Shown: positions 7,300 through 60,452 of the stretch, piece after piece
How the letters are laid out: every line of letters begins with the position of its first letter
Numbering within the stretch: position 1 is the stretch's first letter
DNA from: an uncultured Gemmatimonadota bacterium
GTDB taxonomy: Bacteria; JAAXHH01
Reading direction: 5' to 3'
Length of the DNA stretch: 64,000 nt
Assembly (NCBI GenBank): GCA_951812955.1
Contig: OX638340.1
Location: forward strand, 1-64,000
Program-made: the position numbers and the translations under genes
Notes under the pieces: generated by a model
What the model was told of the DNA's origin: nothing
The model's database searches: none
What the model saw: only the letters and a program-made list of their open reading frames with translations

Positions 7300-7974
7300 A
7301 TGGATGTTACACTGCAGCTTTGGATCGACGCGGCCCTGACGCTGATGATCCTCAGCTTCCTGTACCGTGACAATCCTTTCTACAAATTCGCCGAACATCT
7401 CTTTGTCGGCGTGTCCGCCGCGTACCTCATGGCAATCGGATTCTGGGACCACCTGGTCCCGAACCTGCTGGGCAAACTGTTCCCCTCGCTCATGTCGGGG
7501 GTCGTGCCCGGCGCCGTCGGCCGGTCGCCGGATTACTACTACATCATCCCCGCCGTCTTCGGCCTGCTGCTTCTTACCCGCCTGGTCGACCGCTGGGCCT
7601 GGCTCAGCCGGTGGGCGCTGGCGTTCATCGTCGGCGGCTCGGCGGGATTCAACCTGCCCCGCTTCCTGGATTCGGACTTCATCATTCAGGTCCAAAGCAC
7701 CATGGTTCCGCTCGTGGTGCTCGACCCGGCTGGCAATCTGCTCTGGGGCGCGAGTTTTTCCCACATTGTACTCGTTCTGGGCGTGATCTGCGGACTGGTG
7801 TACTTCTTCTTCTCCGTAGAACACAAGGGGATACTGGGACACGTGTCTCGTGCTGGGATCTGGGTGTTGATGGTGACCTTCGGCGCCGCCTTCGGATACA
7901 CGGTCATGGCGCGCATCTCCCTCCTCACCGGCAGGATGGAAGCCCTGGGCGCCTGGCTCGCCACCATGTTCTGA
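7300..7974 (+). CDS. polytopic integral membrane protein (224 aa), last gene of the candidate operon
   Basis: AGGAA RBS before the ATG at 7300. At least 5 hydrophobic helices ('AALTLMILSFLY', 'LFVGVSAAYLMAIGFW', 'YYYIIPAVFGLLLL', 'IVLVLGVICGLVYFFF', 'IWVLMVTFGAAFGYTV'). Confidence 0.5.
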   Translation: MDVTLQLWIDAALTLMILSFLYRDNPFYKFAEHLFVGVSAAYLMAIGFWDHLVPNLLGKLFPSLMSGVVPGAVGRSPDYYYIIPAVFGLLLLTRLVDRWAWLSRWALAFIVGGSAGFNLPRFLDSDFIIQVQSTMVPLVVLDPAGNLLWGASFSHIVLVLGVICGLVYFFFSVEHKGILGHVSRAGIWVLMVTFGAAFGYTVMARISLLTGRMEALGAWLATMF

Positions 7975-10401: not shown

Positions 10402-11484
10402 TCATTTCGGCGCCCTGACCAGCAGAATCAGGGCGAGTAGTCCGAAGAGCGCGTTGGCGCCCCATGCCGCCGCCATGGGCGGGAGCAATCCGGCGTGACC
10501 GAAGGCCTGGGCAAATCGGAGCAGTCCCCAGTAGACGAAACAGATCCCGATACTCAGGGCAAATCCCACCGCGACGCCGCCCCGTCTCAGATGGGAGGCC
10601 AGCGCGCCGCCCAGCAGCACGATGATCAGACCCGCGCCCGGAAATGCGATCTTCAGGTTGAGGTCTACCAGGTAGCCCTGCACGTCTCCTCCTCCCCGCC
10701 GTACGTTCTGAATCAACTGGTCGAGTTCGCCGTAACTCATCTCCTCGGGGCGTTTCTGCCCTCGCAGGAAGTCCTCCGGCGTCTCGGACCATCCGTCGGG
10801 TTCCAACTCGGCGAACGAGGTGTATTCGGACAGTCCGCCTCCAACCAGAAACTGTCGTTTAACCCCGTTGAAAAGCAACCAGCGCCCATCCATCCAGACG
10901 GCGCGTTCCGCCGTGAGGACGCTGGTGACGGAGCCGTCGCGGAACTCGGTGACGTGTATCCCCGTGCCCTCCTCGATGCGTCCGTTGAAAACGCGGATAT
11001 AGATCTGGCGCCCTCCATCTCCCCTGAAATACACATCGTACCGGATGTGTTGCCCTGCGCCGCCTTGCATGTCCACGTGTTCCGATTTGATTTCGGCACG
11101 TTTCATGCTCGTGTGGGGAACAAGCCATTCACCGGCCCAGAACAGGCATGCGCATACCACCACGCTGACGAGGAGCATCGGCCGCAGCAACCGGTACAGG
11201 CTGAGCCCCGATGCTTTCATGGCGGTCAGTTCTCCCAGCCTGGTCAGCTGGCCGAAGGTATAAAGACTGGCGAGCAGCAGACTGACAGGAATCGTGAGCA
11301 CGAAGATGTAGGGCATGTAATAGACGTAGTAGAGCGCGATATAACCCGGTGCCACGTTGCGGTCCAGGAATCGGTCCAATTGCTCGATGAGATCGACCAC
11401 GAAGAAGATGCTGACGAAGGCGACCAGGCTGACGGCGATGGCGGTAATGAACAGGCGGAGTACGTACCGGGTGATCAGGGACAT
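10402..11484 (-). CDS. lptG: LPS export ABC permease, LptG (YjgP/YjgQ family)
   Basis: 360 aa; N-terminal 'ITRYVLRLFITAIAVSLVAFVSIFFVVDLIEQLDRFL', 'AMKASGLSLYRLLRP', a periplasmic beta-jellyroll segment, then 3 C-terminal TM helices. This is the LptF/LptG architecture. It is second in the gene pair, so called lptG. Confidence 0.8.
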   Translation of the reverse strand: MSLITRYVLRLFITAIAVSLVAFVSIFFVVDLIEQLDRFLDRNVAPGYIALYYVYYMPYIFVLTIPVSLLLASLYTFGQLTRLGELTAMKASGLSLYRLLRPMLLVSVVVCACLFWAGEWLVPHTSMKRAEIKSEHVDMQGGAGQHIRYDVYFRGDGGRQIYIRVFNGRIEEGTGIHVTEFRDGSVTSVLTAERAVWMDGRWLLFNGVKRQFLVGGGLSEYTSFAELEPDGWSETPEDFLRGQKRPEEMSYGELDQLIQNVRRGGGDVQGYLVDLNLKIAFPGAGLIIVLLGGALASHLRRGGVAVGFALSIGICFVYWGLLRFAQAFGHAGLLPPMAAAWGANALFGLLALILLVRAPK

Positions 11485-11521
11485 GAAGTAGCGTTCCTCT
11501 GGTGATTTCGACGCAATGACG

Positions 11522-12748
11522 TCAGATGCGATCCCTGCCGCTGACCCAGACCAGGACGGCTCCGGGTACGCCTATGACGATGTTCGCGGCCCACATCGCC
11601 CAGACTGGATCGATCAGATCGCGGTCCGCCAGTTCTTCGCCGCCGAGCAGGCAGGCCCAGTACAGGAGGAAGAAGCAGAGGCTGACGCCGACGCTCACGC
11701 CCATGCCGCTCCGGCGGATACGCACACCCAGCGGCGCGCCGATCAGCACGAAGACGAGACACGCCGCCGAAATGGCGTACTTTTTGTGGATTTCGACGAC
11801 GTAGCTGTTCTTCTGCCGCTGCCTCAACGAGATCGTCCGCTGCGCTTTGGCCCTGGCCGCTTCGATGGAATCTGTCTTCGCCTGCGAGTGAACCGGCCCG
11901 GGTACAAGACTTGCCGCGACCTCGTCGATCTCCAGTTGCCATTCATCGATTTTCGCCTGCATCATTTCAATGTTCAATTCGCGGTCGCCCCGGGTTCCCG
12001 CCTCCGACCGCTGGACGCCGCTGGGCGCGGTGCGAATCGAAAACCGCTGCCGCTCGAAGACCTCTTTGAAATACCGCCCCGTAGACTCGTCCTGTTGAAG
12101 GAGCTCTCCGTCATAGAGCATCAGGTTGATCCTGCTGCCCGTCTCGTTGACGTGAAACTCGCCCGACCTGGCCGTCATGATGCGCGGGTAGCGCAGGTTC
12201 TCCGTTTCGTAGATGGTGATGCTTTCAATCTCATTGTTCCTCGGATTGACCCGGTCGATCAATATGCTGTATCCCGGAATGTCCTTCATGAATATGCCTG
12301 CGGTGAAAAGCAGCGTGGGACGGGCGCGGTGGATATCGTTCATGAGCGAACGGGCCCGGTAATTGGCTTCGGGCAGGATGACGTCCATAAAGTACAGGTG
12401 ACTGCCGCCAAGGAGTATTCCCAGAACCAGCACGGGTGAGACCATCTGGTAGAAACTGACGCCGCCCGCCTTGAACGCCGTGACTTCGTTATCGGCCGAA
12501 AGCCGGCCGAAAGCCATGAGACTGGCGACCAGTACGGACATGGGAATCGATACGGCGACGATCCAGGCAAGGTTGAGAAAGAAAACCTCGAGCACGGTAA
12601 GCAGTTCGAGGTTCTTGCCTATGATGAGGTCGGCAATCTGAAATATGATGTCCATCACGAGGATGAACGTGATGATCACGAATGAAAACAGAAAGGGCCC
12701 GACGTGCGCTTTAAGAACGTATCGGTAGAGGTGAACCGGGAGGGTCAT
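11522..12748 (-). CDS. lptF: LPS export ABC permease, LptF (YjgP/YjgQ family)
   Basis: 408 aa; 'LYRYVLKAHVGPFLFSFVIITFILVMD', 'AFKAGGVSFYQMVSPVL'; same architecture as the adjacent paralogue. Confidence 0.8.
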   Translation of the reverse strand: MTLPVHLYRYVLKAHVGPFLFSFVIITFILVMDIIFQIADLIIGKNLELLTVLEVFFLNLAWIVAVSIPMSVLVASLMAFGRLSADNEVTAFKAGGVSFYQMVSPVLVLGILLGGSHLYFMDVILPEANYRARSLMNDIHRARPTLLFTAGIFMKDIPGYSILIDRVNPRNNEIESITIYETENLRYPRIMTARSGEFHVNETGSRINLMLYDGELLQQDESTGRYFKEVFERQRFSIRTAPSGVQRSEAGTRGDRELNIEMMQAKIDEWQLEIDEVAASLVPGPVHSQAKTDSIEAARAKAQRTISLRQRQKNSYVVEIHKKYAISAACLVFVLIGAPLGVRIRRSGMGVSVGVSLCFFLLYWACLLGGEELADRDLIDPVWAMWAANIVIGVPGAVLVWVSGRDRI

Positions 12749-12929
12749 GGGCCAATCCGGTGGAATACGGACCGGGGCAGGGTGTTCCGACGAGTTCGGT
12801 GCCGGGCATCGTCGACGATAGTTTCGATGTTATTGATGGTCCCTCGACTATATGAATATACCGCGTGGTATCGAGGGGAAGCAAGCTGTTTTATACTGAG
12901 CGACGCTCCCGATTTGCCGGGAATTTCGC

Positions 12930-12958
12930 TTGACTTGCCGTACGTGCCGCGCTATACT
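12930..12958 (+). promoter_or_regulatory. near-consensus sigma70-type promoter for ssb
   Basis: TTGACT (12930-12935), a 17-nt spacer, then TATACT (12953-12958). An AAGGAG RBS sits at 12979-12984, 8 nt before the ATG at 12993. Confidence 0.55.
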
Positions 12959-12992
12959 CATTTCATTCATTTACAGATAAGGAGCATCCTTG

Positions 12993-13430
12993 ATGGCCAG
13001 TTTAAACAAAGTCATTCTGATCGGTAATCTCGGCGCTGATCCCGAAATGAGGTACACGCCTTCCGGCCGGGCCGTGGTCAATTTCCGCATGGCCACTACG
13101 CGCCAGTGGAACACGCAGGACGGAGAACGGCGGGAAGAAACGGAATGGCACCGGATCGTAGCCTTTTCCAAACTCGCGGAGATCTGTGGCCAATATCTCA
13201 AGAAAGGCGCTCCGGTGTATGTTGAAGGACGGCTGCAAACCCGTTCCTGGGAGGATCAGAACGGGATGAAGCGATATATGACGGAGATCGTAGCGAACGA
13301 GATGCAAATGCTGAGTGCCCGCCAGCAGAGCGAGGTTTCATCGGACGCGCCCGGTGGAATCGGAAATACCGCGACGGAAGAGCCGCCTTCTTCGCCAGGG
13401 ACCGATTCCGACGACGACCTTCCGTTTTGA
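12993..13430 (+). CDS. ssb: single-stranded DNA-binding protein
   Basis: '[36 protein letters not shown]...[41 protein letters not shown]' is the OB-fold. The acidic C-terminal tail ends 'DSDDDLPF', the canonical SSB tip. Confidence 0.95.
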
Positions 13431-13499
13431 CGTCATTCGAGGGATAGTCCGTTTTCGCAGCCGGTTGATCCATACATCGTGGGCCAGTAGTGAGAACCC

Positions 13500-14198
13500 A
13501 TGACCGTTAGACTTAGCGGCAACGGACTTCCTCGAATAACGATCCTTATCGCCCGGCAGGAACCCGTCGATTCGCTGATCAGGTGGCTTCGCGGCGCGGG
13601 TTACCCTTTGACGGAACTGCGTTACACCGTCGTCGAAGACCTCCACGCCCGAATTCCCGATTCGGACATCCTGCTCTTCCATACGGATCGTCCAAGTTCG
13701 GACCTCCCCATTGTGATGGATGAATTGAAGTCTCGGCAGATACTGCGGGCTCCCGCGGTCATTGTGCTGACCGGCTGCGATGCCATCGGTGACTTGGACG
13801 TAACCCGTGGAATCGACGATTTCATTTGCGCGCCATACGATATCCGCGAGTTCGACCTGCGCATCAAGAACGTCCTCTGGCGCCGGCACAGCGTGCGGAT
13901 TCAGGATATGATCGTCTGGGGCGACCTGCTAATCAACCTGGGCAACTACGAAGTCACGATCCGGGGCAAGTCGATCGACCTGACGCTCAAGGAATACGAG
14001 TTGCTCAAGCACCTGGCCAGGCACCGGGGGAGGGTGTTCACCCGGGATGAACTGCTGACGGCCGTATGGGGATATGATTACTTCAGCGGTACGAGGACGG
14101 TGGACGTGCACGTGAGGCGGCTGCGGATGAAGATAGAACGCCACGGCGTTCATATCATCACGACCGTCCGGGGGGTCGGGTACAAGTTCGGAGACTGA
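13500..14198 (+). CDS. OmpR/PhoB-family winged-helix transcriptional regulator with an atypical (probably phosphorylation-independent) receiver domain
   Basis: C-terminal 'LTLKEYELLKHLARHRGRVFTRDELLTAVWGYDYFSGTRTVDVHVRRLRMKIE...VRGVGYKF' is a clear Trans_reg_C domain. The N-terminal half is receiver-like but lacks the acidic DD pair and the conserved Lys ('ICAPYD' where K-P is expected). Confidence 0.75.
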   Translation: MTVRLSGNGLPRITILIARQEPVDSLIRWLRGAGYPLTELRYTVVEDLHARIPDSDILLFHTDRPSSDLPIVMDELKSRQILRAPAVIVLTGCDAIGDLDVTRGIDDFICAPYDIREFDLRIKNVLWRRHSVRIQDMIVWGDLLINLGNYEVTIRGKSIDLTLKEYELLKHLARHRGRVFTRDELLTAVWGYDYFSGTRTVDVHVRRLRMKIERHGVHIITTVRGVGYKFGD

Positions 14199-14199
14199 A

Positions 14200-15942
14200 A
14201 TGCGCAGGACCGCGTTGATCATACTTACATCCGCGTGCGTGATTTTCGGGTGCGCGTACTACAATACCTTCTACAACGCCAGGAAAGCGTTCAAAGAAGG
14301 GGAGCGCATTCGGCTCAGTCAGCAGACGCCCGACGGCGGCTTGCCTCCACAGGCCATTGCCTCCTACGAACTCGCGATCGAAAACGCGGGTCTTGTCCTG
14401 CGGGACCATGCGGGAAGTTCCCTGGTCGACGACGCATTGGTCCTGATCGGCGACGCACTGGCGATCCAGGGGCGGCACGAACAGGCCGTTAAGAGATATC
14501 AACAAGTCCTGAGGTTGTTCCCGGACAGCGAATTTACCGGCCACTGCGTTTTTTCACTCGGTCTCGGCTTGCTCAACGCGGGTGATTCCACACGGGCAGA
14601 TGAGCTGCTGGATCGCTTCGTTCGCGAATATCCCGGCAGCGACCGAATCCCGGACGCCTTCATGCTGCGGGGGAAGATCTCCTTCGGCGGCGCCCGCTAC
14701 GAAGAGGCCGTCTCGCGGTTTCAAGATATTCTGGAACAGCATACGAGCCACGATATGAAAGCGGAAGCCAGGTACTACATCGCACGGTCCAAGCTGGAAC
14801 TGAGTCTATACGCCGATGCAAGGGAACACCTGGAACAAGCCATCGAGCAGGCCCGGTCGAACAGGTTGAAATTTCAGGCCAGTTTCATGCTGGGTGAAAG
14901 TATGCGGCGCGAAGGGAGTATTACCGGCGCGCTGGAGGTGTTCGAATCGCTGTTGGATCTGCGCGCCTACCGAGATTACCACCCCGAGGTCATGCTGGCG
15001 ATGGCGGCCTGCCTTGCCGAACTGGACCGGCATGAAGCGGCCGTTTCCAGGTACGAGTCCGTCATTTCGTTATACGAATCAGACCGAAATCACGCGGAGG
15101 AAGTCTCGCGTGCCATGTTCGAACTGGGGGAATTGTACCGGATCGCAGGCGACCTGGAGTTGGCGGAACAAAGGTACGCCGACGCGCGGCGCGCGAGTCC
15201 GCGTTCGTTCTGGGTCGGTGACGAGTCCGATCGCAAGTTCCGAGCCATCGGTGAACTGCGTCGTCTGAGCCAGAACCTTGGAAACATGCAGGTCGCGTTG
15301 GAATCGGTCAGACCTTCCGGCGATACCGAATCGACAAGCCCATCGAACTTCGCGAAGTTGATGGATAGCGTGATCGGGCTTCGATTCCAACTGGCTGAAC
15401 TTTATCTGTTCAGATTGGAGATGGCCGACTCGACATTGAGCCAGTATCGTGCCATAGAAAAGGAGTCGGCCGATCCCTCCATGGCCGCCAAGGCGGCCTT
15501 CGCGAGGGCCTGGGTACTCGAGGAAATATTGAAGGACAGGGTAAACGCGAGATCGGTCTATGACGCCATCGCCGTGCTGTATCCCGGGACTGCTCACGCC
15601 GTGGAGGCATCCATCGCACTATCGAAACCGATTGAAGGCGAACTTCCTCAGGACCGGCTGTTTGCGGAGGCGGAACGGCTGCTTTTCGAAGCGGACCAGC
15701 CGGACTCCGCGCGTGGCCTGTACGAACTGGTCATTCGCCGGTATCCGGATGGAGCATTCGCGCCGCGTGCGCTCTTTGCCCTTGGATGGCTCGCCGAGAC
15801 GCGTTTCGACGATCCGGAAACGGCCCTCGGACACTTCCATGAAATCGTGGAACGCTATCCCGGGTCGGAACAGGCGGAGTCCGTCCGCGACAAGATTCGC
15901 CTCATGGAAGAACTGCGTCCAGCGGCGGATCCGGACAAATGA
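14200..15942 (+). CDS. tetratricopeptide-repeat (TPR) lipoprotein
   Basis: N-terminal 'MRRTALIILTSACVIFGCAYYN' is a lipobox-type signal with Cys. The rest is multiple TPR-like A/Y/L-rich helical repeats. ATG at 14200 follows the regulator's stop by 1 nt. Confidence 0.7.
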   Translation: MRRTALIILTSACVIFGCAYYNTFYNARKAFKEGERIRLSQQTPDGGLPPQAIASYELAIENAGLVLRDHAGSSLVDDALVLIGDALAIQGRHEQAVKRYQQVLRLFPDSEFTGHCVFSLGLGLLNAGDSTRADELLDRFVREYPGSDRIPDAFMLRGKISFGGARYEEAVSRFQDILEQHTSHDMKAEARYYIARSKLELSLYADAREHLEQAIEQARSNRLKFQASFMLGESMRREGSITGALEVFESLLDLRAYRDYHPEVMLAMAACLAELDRHEAAVSRYESVISLYESDRNHAEEVSRAMFELGELYRIAGDLELAEQRYADARRASPRSFWVGDESDRKFRAIGELRRLSQNLGNMQVALESVRPSGDTESTSPSNFAKLMDSVIGLRFQLAELYLFRLEMADSTLSQYRAIEKESADPSMAAKAAFARAWVLEEILKDRVNARSVYDAIAVLYPGTAHAVEASIALSKPIEGELPQDRLFAEAERLLFEADQPDSARGLYELVIRRYPDGAFAPRALFALGWLAETRFDDPETALGHFHEIVERYPGSEQAESVRDKIRLMEELRPAADPDK

Positions 15943-16090: not shown

Positions 16091-16951
16091 ATGTCGACCA
16101 TCCCCATCTGCCAGTATGACGCCGAGATCCTGTCCAACCGTCAAATCGGTCCCGGTCTTTACTGGATCGACCTGCTGGCACCCGAAATCTCACGCCACGC
16201 CCAGCCCGGTCATTTCGTACACCTGATCGCTTCCGACGTCTCGAAGGACAGCAGCAGGCAGACCTGGCTCCGTCACACCCCCCTGCTCAGGCGCCCCTTC
16301 AGCATTGCCGAACGCGATCCAGAAAAAGGCGTTTTCGGACTCATCTACCGGATCGTCGGCGGCGGAACAGAGATCCTCGCCACACGGCGCGAAGGAGAAC
16401 GCGTAGATGTACTCGGTCCGCTGGGAAGGACATTTGAGCCGATACGCGCGGGACGGCCGGTGATCATGGTCGCGGGCGGGGTCGGGGTAGCGCCCTTTCT
16501 CTCCCTGGCACAGGAGACGGTAAGAGATGGGCGGTCGGACCCGGCGGAAATGACGGTGCTGTTCGGCGCGGCGACGGCTGGCCTGTTGAGCGGGGAAGAG
16601 AAATTCCGCCAACTGGGGGTCGACGTCAAGCTGGCAACCGACGATGGCACGACCGGTCACCACGGCCTGGTGACGGATATGCTGGAACGGGAACTTGCCC
16701 GGTCGCCCCGGCAGTGCGCTTATCTCTATGCCTGTGGACCCACGCCCATGATGCGGCGCTGCCAGGCAATCGCCCGGGAGGCCGGTATCGACGGACAGGT
16801 TTCCCTGGAGGGGATCATGCCCTGCGGCGTGGGGGTCTGCATGGCCTGTGTCGTTCCCTGCGTCATCCCCGGCGATCGATCGTCACCCCGCCGCTACGAG
16901 CGGGTTTGCGACACCGGTCCGGTTTTCGATATGGAGGAGGTCGTGTTGTGA
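16091..16951 (+). CDS. pyrK: dihydroorotate dehydrogenase electron-transfer subunit (FAD/2Fe-2S)
   Basis: FNR-like 'RRPFSI' and 'GGVGVAPF' motifs, and the C-terminal Cys cluster 'MPCGVGVCMACVVPC' typical of PyrK. Confidence 0.85.
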   Translation: MSTIPICQYDAEILSNRQIGPGLYWIDLLAPEISRHAQPGHFVHLIASDVSKDSSRQTWLRHTPLLRRPFSIAERDPEKGVFGLIYRIVGGGTEILATRREGERVDVLGPLGRTFEPIRAGRPVIMVAGGVGVAPFLSLAQETVRDGRSDPAEMTVLFGAATAGLLSGEEKFRQLGVDVKLATDDGTTGHHGLVTDMLERELARSPRQCAYLYACGPTPMMRRCQAIAREAGIDGQVSLEGIMPCGVGVCMACVVPCVIPGDRSSPRRYERVCDTGPVFDMEEVVL

Positions 16952-17898
16952 AGGCACAACCCGATTTATCGGTTAGCATCGGAGCGCTGAAACTCAGAAA
17001 CCCCGTCCTCGCCGCGTCGGGTACCTTCGGATACGGATCTGAATACGGCCGGTTCGTGAATCTCTCTGACTTCGGCGGAATCGTCACCAAGACACTCACG
17101 CCGGAACCCTGGCCCGGCAATCCTCCACCGAGGGCCGCGGAAACGGCCGCCGGCATGCTCAATTCCATCGGACTGCAGAACGTGGGCGTAGAGGCTTTTG
17201 TCCGGGACAAGATGCCGTATCTGAGAAAAATGGATACCGCGTTAATCGTCAACGTGGGCGGGGGGCCGGTCGAGGAATTCGTCTACGTGACCGAACGCCT
17301 GTCCGACTGTGAAGGCATCGATGCGCTGGAGATCAACATGTCCTGCCCAAACGTGTCGGGGGGGTTGGACTTCAGCACCGATCCGCGGCGCGCGGGAGAA
17401 CTCGTTTCCGCGCTGCGCAGCATCACGGACCTGCCGGTCATCGCAAAACTCACGCCGAACGTTACGGACGTCGGGGAAATCGCCCGCAGCGTCGAAGATG
17501 CCGGCGCCGACGCGATATCTGCAATCAACACGCTACGTGGCATGGCGGTGGACATCCGCACGCGCCGTCCCGTACTGGGCGCAGTCACGGGCGGTCTTTC
17601 GGGGCCGGCCATCAAGCCCGTGGCAATAGCGGCCGTTTACCGGATCGCAAGCCAGGTGGACGTTCCGGTCATCGGAATCGGCGGTATCATGAGTGGCGAA
17701 GACGCCGTAGAATTCCTCGTGGCCGGCGCCACGGCCGTTCAGGTTGGAACGGCCAACTTCGTCGAGCCCCGCTCAGGCGCGTCCGTCGCGCGGGAGTTGG
17801 CCGGCTGGTGCGCCGCGTCGGACATACACTCGGTCCGCACACTGATTGGAAGCATGCGGATCCCGTCACAAGAGGACGTTCCATGTCACCCTTTGTAG
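16948..17898 (+). CDS. pyrD: dihydroorotate dehydrogenase catalytic subunit (class 1B)
   Basis: GTG start at 16948 overlaps the pyrK stop. 'LKLRNPVLAASGTFGYG', 'IVTKTLTPEPWPGNPPPR', 'NSIGLQNVG', 'NMSCPNV', 'GIGGI' match PyrD. The upstream part of the ORF-track frame (from 16714) lies inside pyrK. Confidence 0.9.
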   Translation: MKAQPDLSVSIGALKLRNPVLAASGTFGYGSEYGRFVNLSDFGGIVTKTLTPEPWPGNPPPRAAETAAGMLNSIGLQNVGVEAFVRDKMPYLRKMDTALIVNVGGGPVEEFVYVTERLSDCEGIDALEINMSCPNVSGGLDFSTDPRRAGELVSALRSITDLPVIAKLTPNVTDVGEIARSVEDAGADAISAINTLRGMAVDIRTRRPVLGAVTGGLSGPAIKPVAIAAVYRIASQVDVPVIGIGGIMSGEDAVEFLVAGATAVQVGTANFVEPRSGASVARELAGWCAASDIHSVRTLIGSMRIPSQEDVPCHPL

Positions 17899-48398: not shown

Positions 48399-48623
48399 TC
48401 GGGTTGAAGTGATCCGCAAGGAGAGTCCGGCACCGGGAGCGCGGGAGGATCGAGCGCGCCGGGAGCGCGGGAAAGAAGTTGCCGGATCCCCATGTACCGG
48501 TGTACAGTACAGGGATAACCGGGCGCGCATGAGGTTTTGGAACATCGCGATCCACGACCCGCGCCAGAGGTATATACCGTCACGTGGCCCCTTCCGGTCA
48601 CTTCGCCTTACGTACGAACCGCC

Positions 48624-50330
48624 ATGTCTGAAACGAACTTTGATCCCGATCCGCGGCTGAGCGCGCCGATGCGCCGGCATCTCCGTACCCTCGATCTGGA
48701 TACGGTGGATGCCTACAGGAACTGGTGCCGTGAAAACGGATTCAACGCCCGCCTGAACAAGACTCTGCCACAGCGCCGAAAGGAACTGGCCTCGGCGCGG
48801 AGGACCACGAAACAGCATCGGATCGATTCCGAACTCGAGGCGCATATCCGTGCGCTGGCTCTCGGCACGATCGCGGAGTACCAGGCCTGGTGCCGGACGC
48901 ATGGCGTGGGAGACGGCCTTCAGAAGAGCAAGGCCCAGCGGCGCCAGGAGATCACGCTTGCGCGGCAGTCGCGAAACCGCGAGTTCGCCGAGCGGTCGAC
49001 CACCAGCCAGCACAGGCGTCGCCGAAAGGACATGTTGAAACGGATCGCCGCCGGTGAGATCGGCGACATGGAGCTCACCAGCCCCGTTCTGCTCAGGGTG
49101 CATCACCTCTTTCACAACGCGCCGTTCGATCCGGAGGCCAGGACGGCCTTCCTGTCGCTTCTTCTGCACGTCGAAAAACATGGAAGACTTTTTCATATCA
49201 AACCCGCCGTGCCTCAATACGGGCCGCAGCCGTACAACAATTTCGTGGACGGACTCGCGTCGCTGGCCGCCTGGCATGACCGCTGGATCCGGAAGGTCGA
49301 GGACTGGAAACCGGATAGCCACAACGGAAGGCGGCAGTTCGGCGCGTTGGCGCGCCATCTCCTGGCCGAATACGACGTGCCGTCGTGCATGGATACGGCG
49401 TACTTCACCGGATTGGATCCAGGCGCGAGAATCCGGCAGGGTTGGTTCGTTCACGTCGGTGGAGGCAAGAACATCAGGAAGGCTTCCATTCCGTTGCGAT
49501 TTACGAAGCGCATGGCCCACGAATTCATCGTTTCCGCCCCGTCTCAATACACGGTGGACGCGGCCCTTCGCTGGGCACAGGTGATCGGGATGGGAGGAGA
49601 CGACCTGTTAGCGGAGGCGGTCTGCGACTCGATGCTTGGGGAAGCGGTCGGGGAGGAGCCTTTCTGGGAGACCGTCCTGCACTTTTTCGTGAACAATCCC
49701 ATGCTCGACGTGGCGCATGTCGGTCCGATCATCGATTATGTCCATCACCAGCGGCATGTCGGTCAGGAGCGGCGGAATCCGGACGGAAGCGTTCGTCTCA
49801 TCGATCCCCCCGATCCGGATTTCACCATGAAGGGCCGTACGCCCGAATCCATGTTGCGGCGGGTGGAAGCCTGGCACGCCTCGATATCCAAGGCCTCGGT
49901 GAAGACGCCCAGAACCTGGCCGTCGTCCGGGATCCAGGGATTCGAGTGGGTGGATGAGGACGAAAGGGCGGGCGAGATCCGCAATTGGGCGATCGAGGAG
50001 GTTCTCAACGAACGGGCCCTATCGGAAGAGGGCAAGGCCATGCGGCATTGCGTGGCCACCTACAGGACCTCGTGCGCCAACGGCCACCGGTCCATCTGGT
50101 CATTGAAGGTGAGTTACACGAGTTCCGGCACCGTTCGCCGCGTCCTGACCATAGAACTGATCAATAACAGGAGGTACATCCGGCAGGTGCGCGGCAAAAG
50201 CAATTCCCGGCCCCTGGACGCCCACAGCGGTCGCGCCCAGGAAGGGTGGGACGTATTGCTCCGGTGGGCAAACCAGGAAGGCCTGACGCTACCTAGGGAA
50301 GGGTCGCCGTTCATGAGGAGATTGCATTAG
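48624..50330 (+). CDS. hypothetical protein (568 aa) with an N-terminal tandem 'Y-x2-WCR-x2-G-x8-K-x3-QRR-x-E-x3-AR' repeat and a C-terminal Cys/His-containing domain
   Basis: Repeats are 'DTVDAYRNWCRENGFNARLNKTLPQRRKELASARR' and 'GTIAEYQAWCRTHGVGDGLQKSKAQRRQEITLARQ'. The C-terminus has 'AMRHCVATYRTSCANGHRSIWSL'. No confident family; it vaguely resembles PcfJ-like/plasmid-borne proteins, but this is a guess. Confidence 0.45.
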   Translation: MSETNFDPDPRLSAPMRRHLRTLDLDTVDAYRNWCRENGFNARLNKTLPQRRKELASARRTTKQHRIDSELEAHIRALALGTIAEYQAWCRTHGVGDGLQKSKAQRRQEITLARQSRNREFAERSTTSQHRRRRKDMLKRIAAGEIGDMELTSPVLLRVHHLFHNAPFDPEARTAFLSLLLHVEKHGRLFHIKPAVPQYGPQPYNNFVDGLASLAAWHDRWIRKVEDWKPDSHNGRRQFGALARHLLAEYDVPSCMDTAYFTGLDPGARIRQGWFVHVGGGKNIRKASIPLRFTKRMAHEFIVSAPSQYTVDAALRWAQVIGMGGDDLLAEAVCDSMLGEAVGEEPFWETVLHFFVNNPMLDVAHVGPIIDYVHHQRHVGQERRNPDGSVRLIDPPDPDFTMKGRTPESMLRRVEAWHASISKASVKTPRTWPSSGIQGFEWVDEDERAGEIRNWAIEEVLNERALSEEGKAMRHCVATYRTSCANGHRSIWSLKVSYTSSGTVRRVLTIELINNRRYIRQVRGKSNSRPLDAHSGRAQEGWDVLLRWANQEGLTLPREGSPFMRRLH

Positions 50331-54379: not shown

Positions 54380-57300
54380 TCAACGCGGGTTCCCGGTGTA
54401 CGTCCAAGCCCTCCATCCTTGCAGCATCGGGAAATAAAGACCCAGGTTTACCGGTCCGGAATACATTGACTGCAAGACGCTCGCATAGCCCTCCAACTGG
54501 TCGCGGTACCGCCGCTGTTCATTGTCCAGGAACCCTTCGAGGTCCCCGCCGGTATGGGCGCTGGTCTTGTAGTCGATGATCCAGCGCCTGCCCTCGGACA
54601 CGAAAGTCCGGTCCACGACGTATCGTTGGATCCTTCCGTCTAGAAACGTGGTAAGGGCAAGCTCTCTTTCGTCGCTCGGGTGCCGCGTCAGGATCCAGCG
54701 GCCTCGTTCGTCAGCGACGGTATTGCCGAGGGCGGACGTCGCCCTAGCAACCGCCTCGTCCAGCTTCTCACCGGCCAGTCCTTCCTGCCTGAGCGCAATG
54801 CGGAGCGTGTCCTCCCGGAAGTTCAGAAGATCCGGTGCGTACATGCGCTGAAGCATCCGATGCACGACAACCCCGACCCGGCGCTGAAGTTCGGTTACCC
54901 ACTCGAAGGTGGGATGCGCCGATTCGTGGCCTACCGGATCCGAGGGGTCAAGCCGCGGTTTAAGGTCGACGTTTTCAGGTAAAGGTCCGGGCGTCCAGCC
55001 CGCAACCAGGCGGCGGAGCGGCACGCCCCGGGGCTTCGCGTCGGCCAGATCTTCCTCCGGTTCCTGCTCTCCGCGGTCCTTCATCATCGACTGGAATTCA
55101 GGCTCTACCGCGTTCCAGATTCTTGCCAGCAGCGTTCGTGAGCCCGGCGTTTTCAGCGTTCCGCGCTCTGGATCGGTTTCGGCGTGACCGAGCAGATGCA
55201 GGCATTTCCGCGCCCTGGTGGCAGCTACATAGAGCAGGCGGGTCCGTTCGTGGTCGCGCTTTCGAGATTCAATGCCACCCAGGTAGGCGTAAAGCGGGTC
55301 CTTATCGCCGCCAGTCGCGCGAATAGGCGCCAGCAGAAGCCGGGACCGATCGCCGCGGGCATATTCGTGCCACAGGAGTAATTTCGGATCCTCCGCCCGG
55401 GGAAGCCGGCCCAGCCCCGGAAGGATGACGGTATCGAATTCCAGCCCCTTGGCCCGGTGAATCGTCAGCAATTGCACGTCCCCGCCGGCTTCGACGTCTG
55501 AAGGAGCGAAAAGGCGCTCGACGTCATCGGCGAATTCCTTCTCGTCCGGGATGCCCAGTCCGTCCTGGGCCCGTTCCAGGAGATCGAGAAAAGCGGAAGC
55601 GTCTTCACGTTCCGTCCGCGTTTCCAGACACTCCGGTCCGCCCAGCGCGGTCCAGGCGCCTTCCACCAGCCGTCGTGGCGGCAACCTGCCCCGCAGGGTG
55701 AACGCGTCGGCGAAAATGGGTATCAGGCGGCCGATCCTGGATACGGCGTCAGGAGACAGCCGCTCCCGTCTCTCGCGGTCCTGCAGAAGGTCCCATACGG
55801 CGGATGCGGCGTTGCCTCCAACCAGGATTTCCAAATCCTTCAACGTGAGGCCGCACCACGGAGCGCGCAATATCGCCAGCCAGGCCAACCGGTCGCCGGG
55901 ATGCAGGAGCGCCTGTGTCAGTGACATCAAGTCCCGCACCACCGGACGGTCCCCCAGGGCGTCGATCTCCACGGCCCGGAATCTCTTGCCGTTTTCTCGC
56001 AGGGCGGAAACGATACCGGTCAGATGACTGCGGGCGGAGACCAGGACGGCGATGGTCTCGCCCGGTCGCTCCGCCTGCGCCTCGGAGATAACTTCGACCA
56101 CCCGTTCGGCTTCGGCGTCCTGGTCACGGACCAGGAAGGGGTGGAAGCGCACGCAACTGTCCGCTTTCTCGGACTTGAAGGCCACGGAAGGCTCGTAAGT
56201 TACCGCGCCCGACAGGATGTCCTCGTCAGGGGGGAACGCGTCACGCAGCGCGCGGTTCACCCAGACCACGACCCGAGGATACGAGCGGAAGTTCACCGAC
56301 AGCGCGAGGGGGATCGGCCGGATGGCGCCGACCCCGTTTTTCCGGGCCTGAAGAAAGAGCCCCACCTCCGCTTCGCGGAAACCGTATATCGACTGCATGG
56401 GATCGCCCACCAGGAACAGCGTCCGGCCGTCTCCGGGGCGCCAGTCCCTGATCAGGCTGGTGAGCAGGCCGTACTGGCTCTGGGAGGTATCCTGAAACTC
56501 GTCGATGAGCAGGTGCCGGATGTGAAAGTCCAGGCTGCGGGCCAGGTCGGTGGGCACCTTGTCGGGACCCAGCGCGGCCCGCGCCCCGATGCCGATCTCC
56601 GTGAAGTCGACGCACCCTTCTTCCCGGAACACGAGCCTGAGCTGCGCCACGGCCACGGGCAGCAGGAGCATCAGCGCGTTCAGGACGTCCCACTGTCCAT
56701 CTTCGAAACGCGGAGCGGGCAGCGACCGCAGCTCATGCAACGACTCGGCGAATACCGGGTCCAGGTCGATGCGGGCGAGCCTTTCTTTGGCGGCGCGTCC
56801 GGCATCGGTGGGGGGGAATCCATGGTTCCTGTTGACCGCCCTGCGCCGGGTTCCCTGAGCGGTCAGGAACAATTCCGCGAAACCGATCCAGCAGGGAAGG
56901 GATTCGGCATCGGAACCTGGAAATCCGGAAAGTCCGATGCATGCATCTATCGCGCTCGCCCGGTTCTCCGCACGCAGATTCTCTGCCGCGAAACCGGCGA
57001 GTTCAACGGTTTCGTTTCGGTGCTGTTCCGCGAATGCGCTGCGGACATGCTCCAGGGCGCTTTCGATAACCAGCCTGAGGGATGACTCCAGGTCCCTGCG
57101 CAATGCTTCGTGCTTTCGAGGCGCCGCGGATTCGCTCATCGCACCGGGATTCGCAGGATCGGACAGGTGCCGCATCCACTGGTCCCGGGTGCCCAGCATG
57201 ATACTCAGCAGACGCTCGACTCTACCGAAGTGGTTGTCCAGGTGGGAAAGCAGTCTGGACAAAGCCCCCGTCACGTCTGGCGGTGTCTCATCTGCGTCCA

Positions 57301-57787
57301 GCATGGCCACTGTGCGGCGTGCCGCACGGGCGTACAGGTGTCCTGCATTGTCCACCGGCCGAGGCGCCGCGCCCATGCGTGAAACCCAGGGCATCCGCCG
57401 TACCAGCATGGCACAGAGCGAATCGATCGTTTGTATTCGAAGGCGCGCGGGATGCTCGGCCAGCCGCCAGTCCAGCGCGTCGTTGCGGGCAACGGCATCC
57501 CTCGCAAGCTGCCAGGTATGGATTTCGTGAGGCGTCGCAGGGCGCGGTCCCGCGGCGCTTCTCAGGGCCGCGACGATCCGATGGCGCATCTCCGCGGCCG
57601 CCTTCCTGGTAAAGGTAATGGCCACGACGGCCTCCGGACGGTCCACCTGTGCCAGCAAGGCCAGGTATCGCTGTATAAGCAATTCGGTCTTGCCGGACCC
57701 CGCGGGCGCCTGGACGATGAACGACCGGGTATGGTCGAGCGCTTGTAGGCGTTGCGCCTGGTCTGCCACGCGTTCAGCCACGGTCAT
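54380..57787 (-). CDS. addA: UvrD-type helicase plus C-terminal PD-(D/E)xK nuclease: double-strand-break repair helicase AddA
   Basis: 'FIVQAPAGSGKTELLIQRYLALL' (Walker A), 'LLIDEFQDTSQSQ', 'LLTIHRAKGLEFDTV', 'LLYVAATRARKCL', then a C-terminal 'IDYKT' nuclease motif. Start at 'MTVAERV' (57787). Confidence 0.85.
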   Translation of the reverse strand: MTVAERVADQAQRLQALDHTRSFIVQAPAGSGKTELLIQRYLALLAQVDRPEAVVAITFTRKAAAEMRHRIVAALRSAAGPRPATPHEIHTWQLARDAVARNDALDWRLAEHPARLRIQTIDSLCAMLVRRMPWVSRMGAAPRPVDNAGHLYARAARRTVAMLDADETPPDVTGALSRLLSHLDNHFGRVERLLSIMLGTRDQWMRHLSDPANPGAMSESAAPRKHEALRRDLESSLRLVIESALEHVRSAFAEQHRNETVELAGFAAENLRAENRASAIDACIGLSGFPGSDAESLPCWIGFAELFLTAQGTRRRAVNRNHGFPPTDAGRAAKERLARIDLDPVFAESLHELRSLPAPRFEDGQWDVLNALMLLLPVAVAQLRLVFREEGCVDFTEIGIGARAALGPDKVPTDLARSLDFHIRHLLIDEFQDTSQSQYGLLTSLIRDWRPGDGRTLFLVGDPMQSIYGFREAEVGLFLQARKNGVGAIRPIPLALSVNFRSYPRVVVWVNRALRDAFPPDEDILSGAVTYEPSVAFKSEKADSCVRFHPFLVRDQDAEAERVVEVISEAQAERPGETIAVLVSARSHLTGIVSALRENGKRFRAVEIDALGDRPVVRDLMSLTQALLHPGDRLAWLAILRAPWCGLTLKDLEILVGGNAASAVWDLLQDRERRERLSPDAVSRIGRLIPIFADAFTLRGRLPPRRLVEGAWTALGGPECLETRTEREDASAFLDLLERAQDGLGIPDEKEFADDVERLFAPSDVEAGGDVQLLTIHRAKGLEFDTVILPGLGRLPRAEDPKLLLWHEYARGDRSRLLLAPIRATGGDKDPLYAYLGGIESRKRDHERTRLLYVAATRARKCLHLLGHAETDPERGTLKTPGSRTLLARIWNAVEPEFQSMMKDRGEQEPEEDLADAKPRGVPLRRLVAGWTPGPLPENVDLKPRLDPSDPVGHESAHPTFEWVTELQRRVGVVVHRMLQRMYAPDLLNFREDTLRIALRQEGLAGEKLDEAVARATSALGNTVADERGRWILTRHPSDERELALTTFLDGRIQRYVVDRTFVSEGRRWIIDYKTSAHTGGDLEGFLDNEQRRYRDQLEGYASVLQSMYSGPVNLGLYFPMLQGWRAWTYTGNPR

Positions 57788-60452
57788 CCTCCGGTTCCTC
57801 CGTCCCCTGTCCAATTCGGCACAGCGACGGCAGCGCGCAGTGCCTGCAGGTCTGAGCCGGGTCTTTGGGATCCACATGGGCCCGGCCCTCCCGGAAGTCG
57901 CGGCCGAGGCGGTCCAGCACCGTCCTCCAGTCGCCTATGGTCTGTTCCATCGGCGGCTGCTCCTCGGGTACCCGGACCCCCGGCACGATGCCCGGGGACT
58001 CGGCCAACCCCCTGAATCCGGCTTCTCCCGTCCTCAGCCTGGCGAACACGACACCCGCTACCGGCGCATCCGCGCAAACGGCGTATATGGGCAGCTGGGG
58101 ATCATCCGGTCTCGCGCCTTTCCAGTCTGATGGCCCGCATTCGCCGGTCTTGTAATCGAGGATGACCAGTTTCCCGTCCTCCAGGCGATCCACCCGGTCC
58201 GCCCGTATATTCACCTCGATGCCGCCGACTTCAACCGTCCGTCTTTCCTCCTGGTCGACGACCGTGAAGGGCTGCCGAAGGCGTTCCAGGCGCAGCCAGT
58301 CTCCGATGACGGAAATCAACCTGGCCTGCTCGATTTCCGCGAACCGGGGATTTCGCAGGATCCGGCCGCCCAGCATGCCCCGGACTTCGGGTTCGACGTG
58401 CGAACGCACGATTTCCGTCAGCTCCTCTTCAGTCACTTCGAGCAGCCCCCCGTGAGACTTGAGCCGTCCCCACACCCGTTCGAGAACGCGATGGACGAGC
58501 AGTCCCCGCTCGAGTGCGTTCAGTCCGGATTCAGGTTCCTCCAGCGCCCTGGCGCCAAGGCGCATTTCTGCAAATGCCTTGAATGGACAGGCCGCCTGGA
58601 GCTTGAACAGGAAGGTCCCGCCCCCGAGCGCCATATCGTCGCACGGCGGTCCGTAGTGGTCGTCCACCATCTCCAGCACGGAAGCGCTTCGGAGTCGTTC
58701 CCCGTCACCGGGCGACAGCTGGATCCCCAGTTCAGCAGCCGAGGTTTCGGGCAACATGCTTACGAGCGGGCTGACGCGCAGGTCCGTGTCCTCTTCCCGC
58801 TCCGGATAGCTGACGACGACGGAACGCGCGGCCGAAAGAAGGCGTCCTGTGAGCGTCCGGGTGAGTTCGAGTTCCCGTTCAGGCGACGATCCGGGGAGGT
58901 CGTAACGGCGTTGAAGACGAAGTGGAATGAACGGATCCGGTGCGGGATCGGCCGGCCACGCGCCGTCATGCATGCCCATCATCCAGAGCCGGTCGAAACG
59001 CAGGCCCGAGCTTTCTAAAACACCCAGAATCTGCACGGGGGCCGGCGTGGATTCCGGTTGAAACAACCTGGCCGAAGCGAGATTTCTCAGCATGGACACC
59101 GCCGCGTGGCGTGTTACGCGGCCGGACACGGCGTCCAGACCGGCCAGCTCGGAGAGCAACTCGTGCCAGACTTCCAGGGTCTGGTATTCGATACTGTCGA
59201 GCGTGCGGTCACCGGGCCATCCAATGTCGCGTAGGAACCCCGACAGGACCGGAGCCCAGTCGCTTGGCAGCCGCGGGGCCTGAATCGCCTTGTACTTCTC
59301 TGCCCATGTCCCACACAGGGACGTGAATACGGGACACCCGTCGGCGTCCCCTCGTCTGCCGGCCAACCCGATCAACTCCGATATGGAGACATCCGGTGCT
59401 CCTCGGGCGCGCAGAGCGGCGTCCAGCATGGCCCGGCGGGTCATTTCCTCCGCGGCCCCGGGTAGAAACGGAGACCGGAGTACACGGCCCGCAAGCTCGA
59501 CGGCGATATCCCCGGGGTCGATACCGAGGAACAGCAACGCCGTCTCGATTACGGGGTATTCATCGAGAGGCAGCCCCAGGGAGATGTTGAAGCATCGCGC
59601 CGGGTCGAGGTCAGGCCGGAGCCGGTCGCGGGGATGAAACACCTCGCCGAATACGCGCTCGATCTCACTTCTACGCCGTTCCAGTCCGGGCACGATGATG
59701 CCGATTCGGTACGCCGGGTCATGGGCGTCCGGATCGATTTCCACACACCCGCGGGCCCATTCTGCGGCGGCACGGAGCTCGCGGCCGGCGTCGGCAAGGC
59801 CCAGGCGCGCGGCGTCGCCGGCTTCATCAGGGCGCGCGCTTTCCCGGATCTCCACGCCGCGCCTTGCGAGGGCGTCGATCAGGCTCTGTTGGACAGGCGA
59901 GAGTTCCAGGAATCCCGCGAATTCGACTTCTTCGGGAACGGGAAACGCTTCCTGGTCGATGAGGTCACCCACAGCCGCGGTCAGTTCGGCGTTCGAAATC
60001 CAGTCGTTGCGGCGGCAACGATCGCGAAACGCTTCGGCCCAAGACAGAAAGGTCCGGGCGTCCGCGGATTCATTCCACGCCTCGTCGTCGACCGGCAGCG
60101 CCCAGCCGCACAGATGGTCCCAGGACCTGGTGGCGGCCTCAACGGTCGAAGGGACGTCCAGCAGGCTTTCAGATTCTACAGGCCCATCAGGCCCGGATCG
60201 AATGATGTTTTCCCAAATCAACCGTTCTTCAGCCGGCCGGAGCAGGCGTGCCAGCGTGGCCGGGTGATCGTAGAACAGCCCGTTCTGCCAGGTCTCCGAA
60301 AGCCATGCGGAGAGCGGCAGGATCTGTGCGGTTGGCCACGTGGTTTGCCCCGCCGTCTCCTGGTCCCGGTCATGGCTCAGGCGGAGATCGCGTGCGAGGC
60401 GCGTGGTCGCAGTGATAACGGTCATGGAGGCAATATCCGGATTACACGGCAA
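57774..60452 (-). CDS. addB: AddB-type PD-(D/E)xK nuclease subunit (alphaproteobacterial-style AddB, no active helicase) with C-terminal Cys cluster
   Basis: About 890 aa upstream of addA on the same strand, with a 14-nt overlap. 'LVILDYKTG' is the nuclease motif. 'CRHCALPSLC' near the C-terminus is consistent with the AddB Fe-S staple. An alternative start lies at 'MTVITAT' (60425). Confidence 0.7.
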   Translation of the reverse strand: MPCNPDIASMTVITATTRLARDLRLSHDRDQETAGQTTWPTAQILPLSAWLSETWQNGLFYDHPATLARLLRPAEERLIWENIIRSGPDGPVESESLLDVPSTVEAATRSWDHLCGWALPVDDEAWNESADARTFLSWAEAFRDRCRRNDWISNAELTAAVGDLIDQEAFPVPEEVEFAGFLELSPVQQSLIDALARRGVEIRESARPDEAGDAARLGLADAGRELRAAAEWARGCVEIDPDAHDPAYRIGIIVPGLERRRSEIERVFGEVFHPRDRLRPDLDPARCFNISLGLPLDEYPVIETALLFLGIDPGDIAVELAGRVLRSPFLPGAAEEMTRRAMLDAALRARGAPDVSISELIGLAGRRGDADGCPVFTSLCGTWAEKYKAIQAPRLPSDWAPVLSGFLRDIGWPGDRTLDSIEYQTLEVWHELLSELAGLDAVSGRVTRHAAVSMLRNLASARLFQPESTPAPVQILGVLESSGLRFDRLWMMGMHDGAWPADPAPDPFIPLRLQRRYDLPGSSPERELELTRTLTGRLLSAARSVVVSYPEREEDTDLRVSPLVSMLPETSAAELGIQLSPGDGERLRSASVLEMVDDHYGPPCDDMALGGGTFLFKLQAACPFKAFAEMRLGARALEEPESGLNALERGLLVHRVLERVWGRLKSHGGLLEVTEEELTEIVRSHVEPEVRGMLGGRILRNPRFAEIEQARLISVIGDWLRLERLRQPFTVVDQEERRTVEVGGIEVNIRADRVDRLEDGKLVILDYKTGECGPSDWKGARPDDPQLPIYAVCADAPVAGVVFARLRTGEAGFRGLAESPGIVPGVRVPEEQPPMEQTIGDWRTVLDRLGRDFREGRAHVDPKDPAQTCRHCALPSLCRIGQGTEEPEDDRG

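Follow-up and report, generated by a model that had tools for sequence, protein, structure and literature searches.

An aspartate-less pseudo-receiver regulator of the OmpR/PhoB class, linked to ssb in uncultured bacteria and probably independent of phosphorylation

The 232-residue protein encoded directly downstream of ssb in the stretch of DNA analysed here (the window, 64,000 nucleotides) is best read as a transcription factor of the OmpR/PhoB class that would act without phosphorylation and use an aspartate-less pseudo-receiver as its dimerisation module; we put the probability of this reading at about 0.65. Of the catalytic quintet of a typical phospho-accepting receiver, four residues are absent, the phospho-acceptor Asp among them, and Thr alone is left. 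A preliminary description had proposed an atypical orphan regulator, and this is supported in silico by the loss of most of the quintet, the retained fold, the retained dimer residues and the search for a kinase in the window, which found none. A 2025 J Bacteriol minireview defines a pseudo-receiver as a receiver-like domain missing at least one of the five residues and an aspartate-less receiver (ALR) as one with no phospho-acceptor Asp (PMC12632262); judged from its sequence, the N-terminal domain falls among the pseudo-receivers as an ALR, which makes the protein an atypical response regulator. The gene and its two domains are as follows.

13500..14198, + strand: regulator coding sequence, 232 aa plus stop (ORF list and sequence, 22 genome orthologs, dN/dS well below 1)
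13527..13889, + strand: pseudo-receiver (aspartate-less receiver) domain, residues ~10-130
13908..14195, + strand: winged-helix DNA-binding domain of the OmpR/PhoB type, residues ~137-232 (Pfam Trans_reg_C, identity, dN/dS)

The ATG at 13500 is the first possible start because an in-frame TGA occupies 13491-13493. Orthologs were found in 22 species-representative genomes, each 232 aa long and 68-97% identical; all are metagenome-assembled genomes (MAGs) labelled Latescibacterota, Gemmatimonadetes/Gemmatimonadota or plain 'bacterium', and several of their names hint at sponge or coral hosts. A second, metagenomic tier of orthologs (51-61% identity, ~250-259 aa), one of them labelled Zixibacteria, carries an N-terminal extension. 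Pairwise Nei-Gojobori comparison (204 ortholog pairs, 23 orthologs) gives dN/dS of 0.16 for the N-domain (codons 1-133) and 0.011 for the DNA-binding half (codons 134-232): purifying selection maintains both halves, the DNA-binding half extremely so, and on these values a pseudogene or a gene in decay is rejected. An antisense ORF at 13338-13889 (- strand) is judged spurious, selection acting on the + frame; spurious antisense frames of this kind are common at the GC content of the window (62%).

The DNA-binding half is the canonical winged helix that had been claimed for it, with a match to the whole Trans_reg_C model (1-77/77) at residues 156-230 (E 1.5e-28) and 55-59% identity to GlnR and 50-53% to VicR/YycF in this domain. 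Canonical PhoB, BaeR, MtrA and WalR/YycF have the same arrangement of two domains and share the sequence of the recognition helix (TVDVHVRRLR) and the residues of the dimer face; in contrast to these regulators, the window protein lacks the catalytic quintet, and no partner kinase was found for it. Pfam and NCBIfam recognise nothing in the protein beyond the winged helix, the partial NCBIfam matches to PhoB, MtrA and YycF (~115 bits) lying far under the equivalog cutoffs of 270-340 bits.

The N-terminal half escapes Pfam Response_reg (PF00072) even at E<=1, and its homology to receivers emerges from profile comparison and structure prediction. The profile used (alignment A2) covers the first 133 residues of 17 family members, in which identity falls to 36% and 13 residues are invariant. 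Against solved receiver domains it matches BaeR (E 2.8e-9), AdeR (4.8e-9) and TorR (1.6e-8), as well as PhoB (PDB 1b00, E 1.6e-6, query 12-128 to PhoB 4-122); hhalign aligns it to the E. coli PhoB receiver over 115 columns with 95.5% probability (E 1.4e-8), and the comparison to CheY alone is not significant (E 0.21). The PhoB register in hhalign agrees with the coordinates of the PDB 1b00 match. An AlphaFold2 (AF2) model of the monomer, built from a 32-sequence family alignment (mean pLDDT 82.6), predicts strands beta1 at residues 13-17, beta2 at 37-41, beta3 at 57-61, beta4 at 86-92 and beta5 at 107-111, and helices alpha1 at 21-32, alpha2 at 45-48, alpha3 at 65-78, alpha4 at 93-98 and alpha5 at 115-130. 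In Foldseek, the whole model matches full-length OmpR/PhoB regulators, e.g., PrrA (3.9e-16 over 228 columns), with further matches to MtrA, PhoP, RpaA, GlnR (8hih) and HP1043 (2hqr). By profile and by model, then, this half is a receiver homolog with the (beta-alpha)5 receiver fold.

An exhaustive phmmer search of 1.84 billion 50%-identity representatives with the N-domain returned just two 50%-identity clusters at E<=1e-10, both belonging to the family itself; the remaining matches are generic receivers at E 1e-6 to 1e-3, and a word-indexed search with the N-domain profile added no members to the family already known. Since only two clusters pass at E<=1e-10, the degenerate N-domain is restricted to a narrow lineage, and by its sequence the family is a narrow, lineage-specific one (MAGs labelled Latescibacterota, Gemmatimonadota or Zixibacteria) inside a known class. 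So few relatives, the silence of PF00072 and the failure of the CheY-only comparison might suggest that the winged helix alone matters, the N-terminal half being either what remains of a decaying domain or a sequence with no receiver ancestry. That explanation is hardly credible and, as far as sequence analysis goes, refuted: the N-domain dN/dS signals purifying selection, the invariant residues of the A2 alignment speak for constraint, and the profile-to-PDB and hhalign matches are significant and run from beta1 to alpha5.

The catalytic quintet was mapped by HMMER alignment to BaeR and hhalign to PhoB, with the same outcome for acidic pair, Asp and Lys; the Thr was assigned from the AdeR and PhoB alignments, the BaeR alignment being one off there.

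13548..13556, + strand: codons of I17-A18-R19, with I17/A18 at the acidic Mg-binding pair (PhoB E9/D10; BaeR and PhoB alignments)
13680..13682, + strand: codon of H61, at the phospho-acceptor Asp position (PhoB D53), end of beta3 (alignments, AF2 model)
13770..13772, + strand: codon of T91, the sole quintet residue kept (PhoB T83), end of beta4 (alignments)
13830..13835, + strand: codons of A111-P112, at the conserved Lys-Pro position (PhoB K105-P106), end of beta5 (alignments)

In the AF2 model the mapped residues lie at the C-terminal ends of beta1, beta3, beta4 and beta5, the site of the quintet in true receivers. The preliminary description had aligned the domain by eye, noting no acidic pocket near beta1 and 'CAPYD' in place of 'TKP', and both observations hold: I17/A18 stand where PhoB has E9/D10 (in the segment ILIARQE), A111 stands where PhoB has K105 (in FICAPYD), and no D-D-D-T-K set emerges when the profile is aligned to PhoB and BaeR. 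The receiver was rightly called degenerate, but the extent was understated: the degeneracy is stronger because the phospho-acceptor Asp is lost as well, to H61. Both the metal-binding pair and the Lys are gone family-wide. Residue 18 is Ala in 22 of 23 close orthologs, and positions 17-19 hold at most one acidic residue, in a minority of the 32 family members only; position 111 is A, T, H, D, E, G or P and never Lys (0/32), next to an invariant P112; position 61 is His in 26/32, Gln in 4/32, Tyr in 1/32 and Asn in 1/32, with Asp or Glu in none. Thr91 is kept in 26/32, one subgroup having Ala, and the switch Tyr (PhoB Y102) is replaced by F108.

Could the protein nonetheless be a conventional phospho-regulated regulator, phosphorylated on D63 or His61 by a kinase whose gene lies elsewhere in the genome? 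D63 lies two residues past the canonical Asp site, and 17 of 23 close orthologs have it; distant kinases are frequent for orphan regulators (PMC12632262). Elsewhere in the family, however, position 63 is S, T, V, I, E, N, A or R, and the acidic pair and Lys, which catalyse phosphotransfer, are missing from all members. The kinase search points the same way within its reach, which was the 64 kb window and the ortholog loci rather than whole genomes. A crude motif screen of all six frames of the window found no H-box, N-box or G2-box, three isolated G1-like matches being its only kinase-box matches, and Pfam scans of 33 window ORFs (all the largest included, about a dozen smaller or overlapping ORFs lying outside the scan) found no HisKA or HATPase_c. 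The 22 orthologous loci show full synteny, over the ~14 kb that they cover, with this part of the window, in which no kinase was found, and the Pfam-annotated flanks of three divergent orthologs contain none. The statement that no kinase gene adjoins the regulator is thus borne out, its neighbours being ssb and a TPR lipoprotein gene, and the suggested search for a partner kinase came back empty, by motif screen and Pfam alike, as far as the window extends. Conventional phospho-regulation is very unlikely.

What the domain has kept is the surface through which activated receivers pair.

13815..13883, + strand: alpha4-beta5-alpha5 face, D106, D107, F108, E117, R121 and R128 (hhalign; invariant or nearly so in 32 members)

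By hhalign, these residues correspond to PhoB D100, D101, Y102, E111, R115 and R122, respectively; P112, W127 and R129 are likewise invariant or nearly so in the family alignments of the N-domain. In the BeF3-activated PhoB dimer, R91 contacts E111' across the alpha4-beta5-alpha5 face and R122 contacts the main-chain carbonyls of D76'/I77'; in BfmR, R124 (the counterpart of PhoB R122) also salt-bridges D102', which aligns to PhoB D100, and the BfmR R117-D103' pair equals PhoB R115-D101' (PMC4888885). D101R rescues PhoB R115D (PMC4511772). A 2-residue deletion in alpha4 takes out the position of PhoB R91, with which E111 pairs, leaving one of the three canonical salt bridges unmappable. Most pseudo-receiver dimers employ part of this face, on which many of these regulators pair without phosphorylation, and ChxR, GlnR, HP1043 and RamR form dimers without phosphorylation (PMC12632262).

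Because the alpha4-beta5-alpha5 salt-bridge residues are preserved, the pseudo-receiver is probably a dimerisation module, constitutive or otherwise regulated, that would hold the active-like state. As HP1043 and GlnR are described to do, the dimer would bring its pair of winged helices onto direct repeats in the DNA. Activity would probably be set mainly by protein level; the gene, which lacks a Shine-Dalgarno sequence, is apparently transcribed together with ssb from a conserved sigma70-type promoter. The strongly conserved DNA-binding domain and the fixed place of the gene beside ssb and lptFG suggest that the targets are a conserved set of housekeeping or envelope-related genes.

The domain may also do more than dimerise: T91 and F108, both residues of the switch mechanism, are kept, and it may still toggle between conformations on another input. 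One explanation goes further and has the pseudo-receiver sense a ligand, redox state via Cys110/Cys93, a Ser/Thr/His modification or a partner protein, with this input rather than expression level controlling dimerisation or DNA binding. Such inputs have precedent among known atypical regulators, namely redox-controlled Cys in RitR and HP1021, ligands, and, in GlnR, acetylation as well as phosphorylation on Ser/Thr (PMC12632262). All 23 close orthologs have C110, the two switch residues are kept, and the family-specific invariant residues P11, W29 and G34-Y35 lie off the dimer face and have no obvious role. Yet neither C110 nor C93 is conserved among the more divergent half of the members, which carry I, T, N, Y, F or A instead, the replacement of His61 by Gln, Tyr or Asn in some members means that His-specific chemistry is not universal, and no ligand pocket or partner was identified. 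We regard control by another input as possible but rather unlikely.

Set against known systems, the protein shares with the ALR class of the OmpR/PhoB type the Asp-less receiver fold, the fusion to Trans_reg_C, the orphan gene and the alpha4-beta5-alpha5 face (PMC4395418, PMC12632262). It is more degenerate than most ALRs, with one of five quintet residues left (Thr) and no visibility to PF00072. Its lineage is uncultured, and His seldom takes the place of the Asp; in the ALR survey of Maule et al. 2015, Arg, Lys and His jointly make up 4% of Asp-site substitutions (PMC4395418). HP1043 (HsrA) of Helicobacter pylori (PDB 2hqr) is likewise an orphan OmpR-type regulator without a phospho-acceptor Asp, and itself dimerises and binds DNA without phosphorylation (PMC12632262; PDB title). 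The two proteins match in sequence (E 1.4e-14) and, by Foldseek, in fold; HP1043 differs in being only ~21% identical and no specific relative, in belonging to another phylum with another gene context, and in that its essentiality and regulon are known. The regulator presumably works like the characterised analogues HP1043, ChxR, RitR and GlnR.

The best sequence matches among solved structures are the GlnR proteins of M. tuberculosis and S. erythraea (E 1.2e-33 to 5.9e-31), driven by the DNA-binding domain. Actinobacterial GlnR (PDB 8hih, 8hig, 8hml; GlnR_1st in Pfam, PF21695, a minor pseudo-receiver family) is also an orphan without the Lys and forms a phosphorylation-independent homodimer, but it keeps the conserved Asp for dimer-stabilising charge interactions (PMC12632262), where the regulator has His. 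The genes under GlnR control belong to nitrogen metabolism, to which the regulator shows no link, and beside it there are no nitrogen-assimilation genes (its neighbours are lptGF, ssb, the TPR gene and pyrKDF). PF21695 does not match the window protein, and its orthologs reach sub-threshold scores only (P0018, 18.2 bits against a 27-bit cutoff). Membership of the GlnR family was rejected on the missing PF21695 match and the missing Asp (position 61 is H/Q/Y/N). Family members score at least 239 bits; the next full-length matches, at ~160-170 bits, include many Latescibacterota proteins with PF21695, which in the examples sequenced keep the Asp and lack others of the quintet. The two whose surroundings were examined (P0044, L079 5001-5729; P0036, L080 5001-5696) are orphans as well, and their neighbourhoods are unrelated: a DsbD-like gene and pdxA adjoin one, and UPF0182 and carbonic anhydrase genes adjoin the other. 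Orphan pseudo-receiver OmpR-type regulators thus seem common in Latescibacterota. From its sequence, the degenerate domain of the regulator appears to have branched off from a GlnR-like pseudo-receiver clade and to have decayed further.

The gene has a fixed place in the chromosome, between ssb and a TPR lipoprotein gene in the window, as previously stated.

12993..13430, + strand: ssb (Pfam SSB, E 2.9e-43), directly upstream of the regulator, linkage conserved
14200..15942, + strand: TPR lipoprotein gene, 580 aa (many Pfam TPR families, lipobox VIFGC)
10402..12748, - strand: lptG and lptF (PF03739 LptF_LptG on the orthologous genes), divergent from ssb, conserved neighbours

The order metK, lptG-lptF (- strand) / ssb-regulator-TPR-pyrK-pyrD-pyrF (+ strand) is the same in all genome loci that reach that far (three of the 22 end short on the downstream side) and recurs in a Tara Oceans MAG. 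The 51-61% identical orthologs keep lptF(G) / ssb-regulator, but there the next gene encodes an FG-GAP repeat protein instead of the TPR protein; the conserved unit is therefore ssb-regulator beside lptFG rather than regulator-TPR, and the TPR gene, whose ATG lies 1 nt past the regulator stop, adjoins the regulator in the lineage of the window only. In one divergent locus (L074 2328-9244), two large FG-GAP proteins (1499 and 510 aa, the larger also with Big_5) separate the regulator from a TPR protein. In NCBIfam, the TPR lipoprotein matches PorW/SprE, a lipoprotein of type IX secretion, below threshold (94.7 bits, cutoff 250), and it has repeated YbgF/CpoB-like TPR matches. A surface or secretion theme around the TPR/FG-GAP genes is possible.

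The other window genes are of a housekeeping kind: metK, lptFG, pyrK/D/F, ferrochelatase, NAD synthase, a HrpA-like helicase and AddAB-like nucleases. The last are a pair at 54380-60452; the longer protein, of 1165 aa, joins a UvrD-type helicase to a PD-(D/E)XK nuclease domain, and its partner of 892 aa is likewise a PD-(D/E)XK protein; a PcfJ-like protein of 597 aa (E 5.5e-10) is encoded at 48537-50330. The listed pyrD ORF (16714-17898) opens with the GTG at 16714, so that it shares ~240 nt with pyrK (16091-16951); because ortholog pyrD (306 aa) begins at the pyrK stop, the true start in the window is probably near 16950-16980. Similarly, ssb is listed from TTG 12990, and the conserved ATG 12993, with a conserved AAGGAG 8 nt upstream, is probably its start. 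The SSB protein ends in the typical acidic tip DDDLPF; at three orthologous loci (L016, L017, L019, ~7800-7870) tandem CCGTCCGG-type repeats, which would encode proline/serine/glycine-rich units, are inserted in its C-terminal linker and are absent from the window.

Upstream of ssb and of the regulator, the following elements stand out.

12930..12958, + strand: promoter-like site TTGACT-17-TATACT upstream of ssb (consensus scan, 10/12 matches; both hexamers conserved in all aligned orthologs)
12884 down to 12855, - strand: divergent sigma70-like promoter TTGCTT-18-TATATT on the lptF side (conservation)
13431..13499, + strand: ssb-regulator spacer, 69 nt, with a conserved 3' part and possible pairing with the start codon (alignment, RNAalifold)

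On the - strand, conservation favours TTGCTT-18-TATATT over the TCGATA/TATAGT pair reported by the scan. The + strand site is the likely promoter for ssb, the regulator and the TPR gene: its conservation and the absence of any terminator-like hairpin between these genes suggest a single transcript. Footprinting of conserved blocks found no candidate site for operator-like direct repeats in the lptF-ssb or the ssb-regulator spacer, every conserved block between lptF and ssb being explained by one of the promoters (one on each strand), by the lptF leader or by the Shine-Dalgarno sequence of ssb. A conserved block, GGTCCCTCGACTA (12838-12850), lies in the presumed lptF leader, and the region 12838-12986 holds the two divergent sigma70-like promoters.

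No Shine-Dalgarno sequence precedes the regulator ATG. Instead, the 25 nt before it and the first ~9 codons are conserved, synonymous sites included (region 13446-13535), and RNAalifold predicts a hairpin, CGUGGG (13478-13483)/CCCAUG, that pairs the start codon, together with a long-range helix between AGUCCGUU (13446-13453) and AACGGACU (13521-13528). Covariation is almost nil (term +0.17), so the structure is a tentative prediction; the single-sequence fold has a z of -2.68. The putative hairpin could throttle translation of the regulator. Rfam matches nothing in the whole window.

A bolder picture, speculative and on balance doubtful, would make this a lineage-defining housekeeping regulator, possibly essential like HP1043/HsrA, whose position in the ssb operon beside lptFG would be older than the split from the Zixibacteria-labelled relatives; His61 and Thr91/Phe108 could then provide a novel, non-phosphoryl hold or toggle of the active conformation, and the start-codon hairpin could throttle translation.

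Aspartate-less pseudo-receiver regulators are a known class, of which the window protein is a new, lineage-restricted member; it leaves the knowledge of two-component signalling unchanged and is mildly unusual in its single remaining quintet residue and invisibility to PF00072, its His at the Asp site and its deeply conserved linkage to ssb. For annotation, it illustrates that 'winged helix-turn-helix domain-containing protein' labels can hide receiver-derived domains missed by Pfam. The family adds a well-defined, unusually degenerate aspartate-less OmpR-type lineage from uncultured bacteria, partly sponge- or coral-associated by MAG name, and its combination of four lost catalytic residues, an intact dimer face and an extremely conserved DNA-binding domain offers a clean natural example of pseudo-receivers as dimerisation scaffolds.
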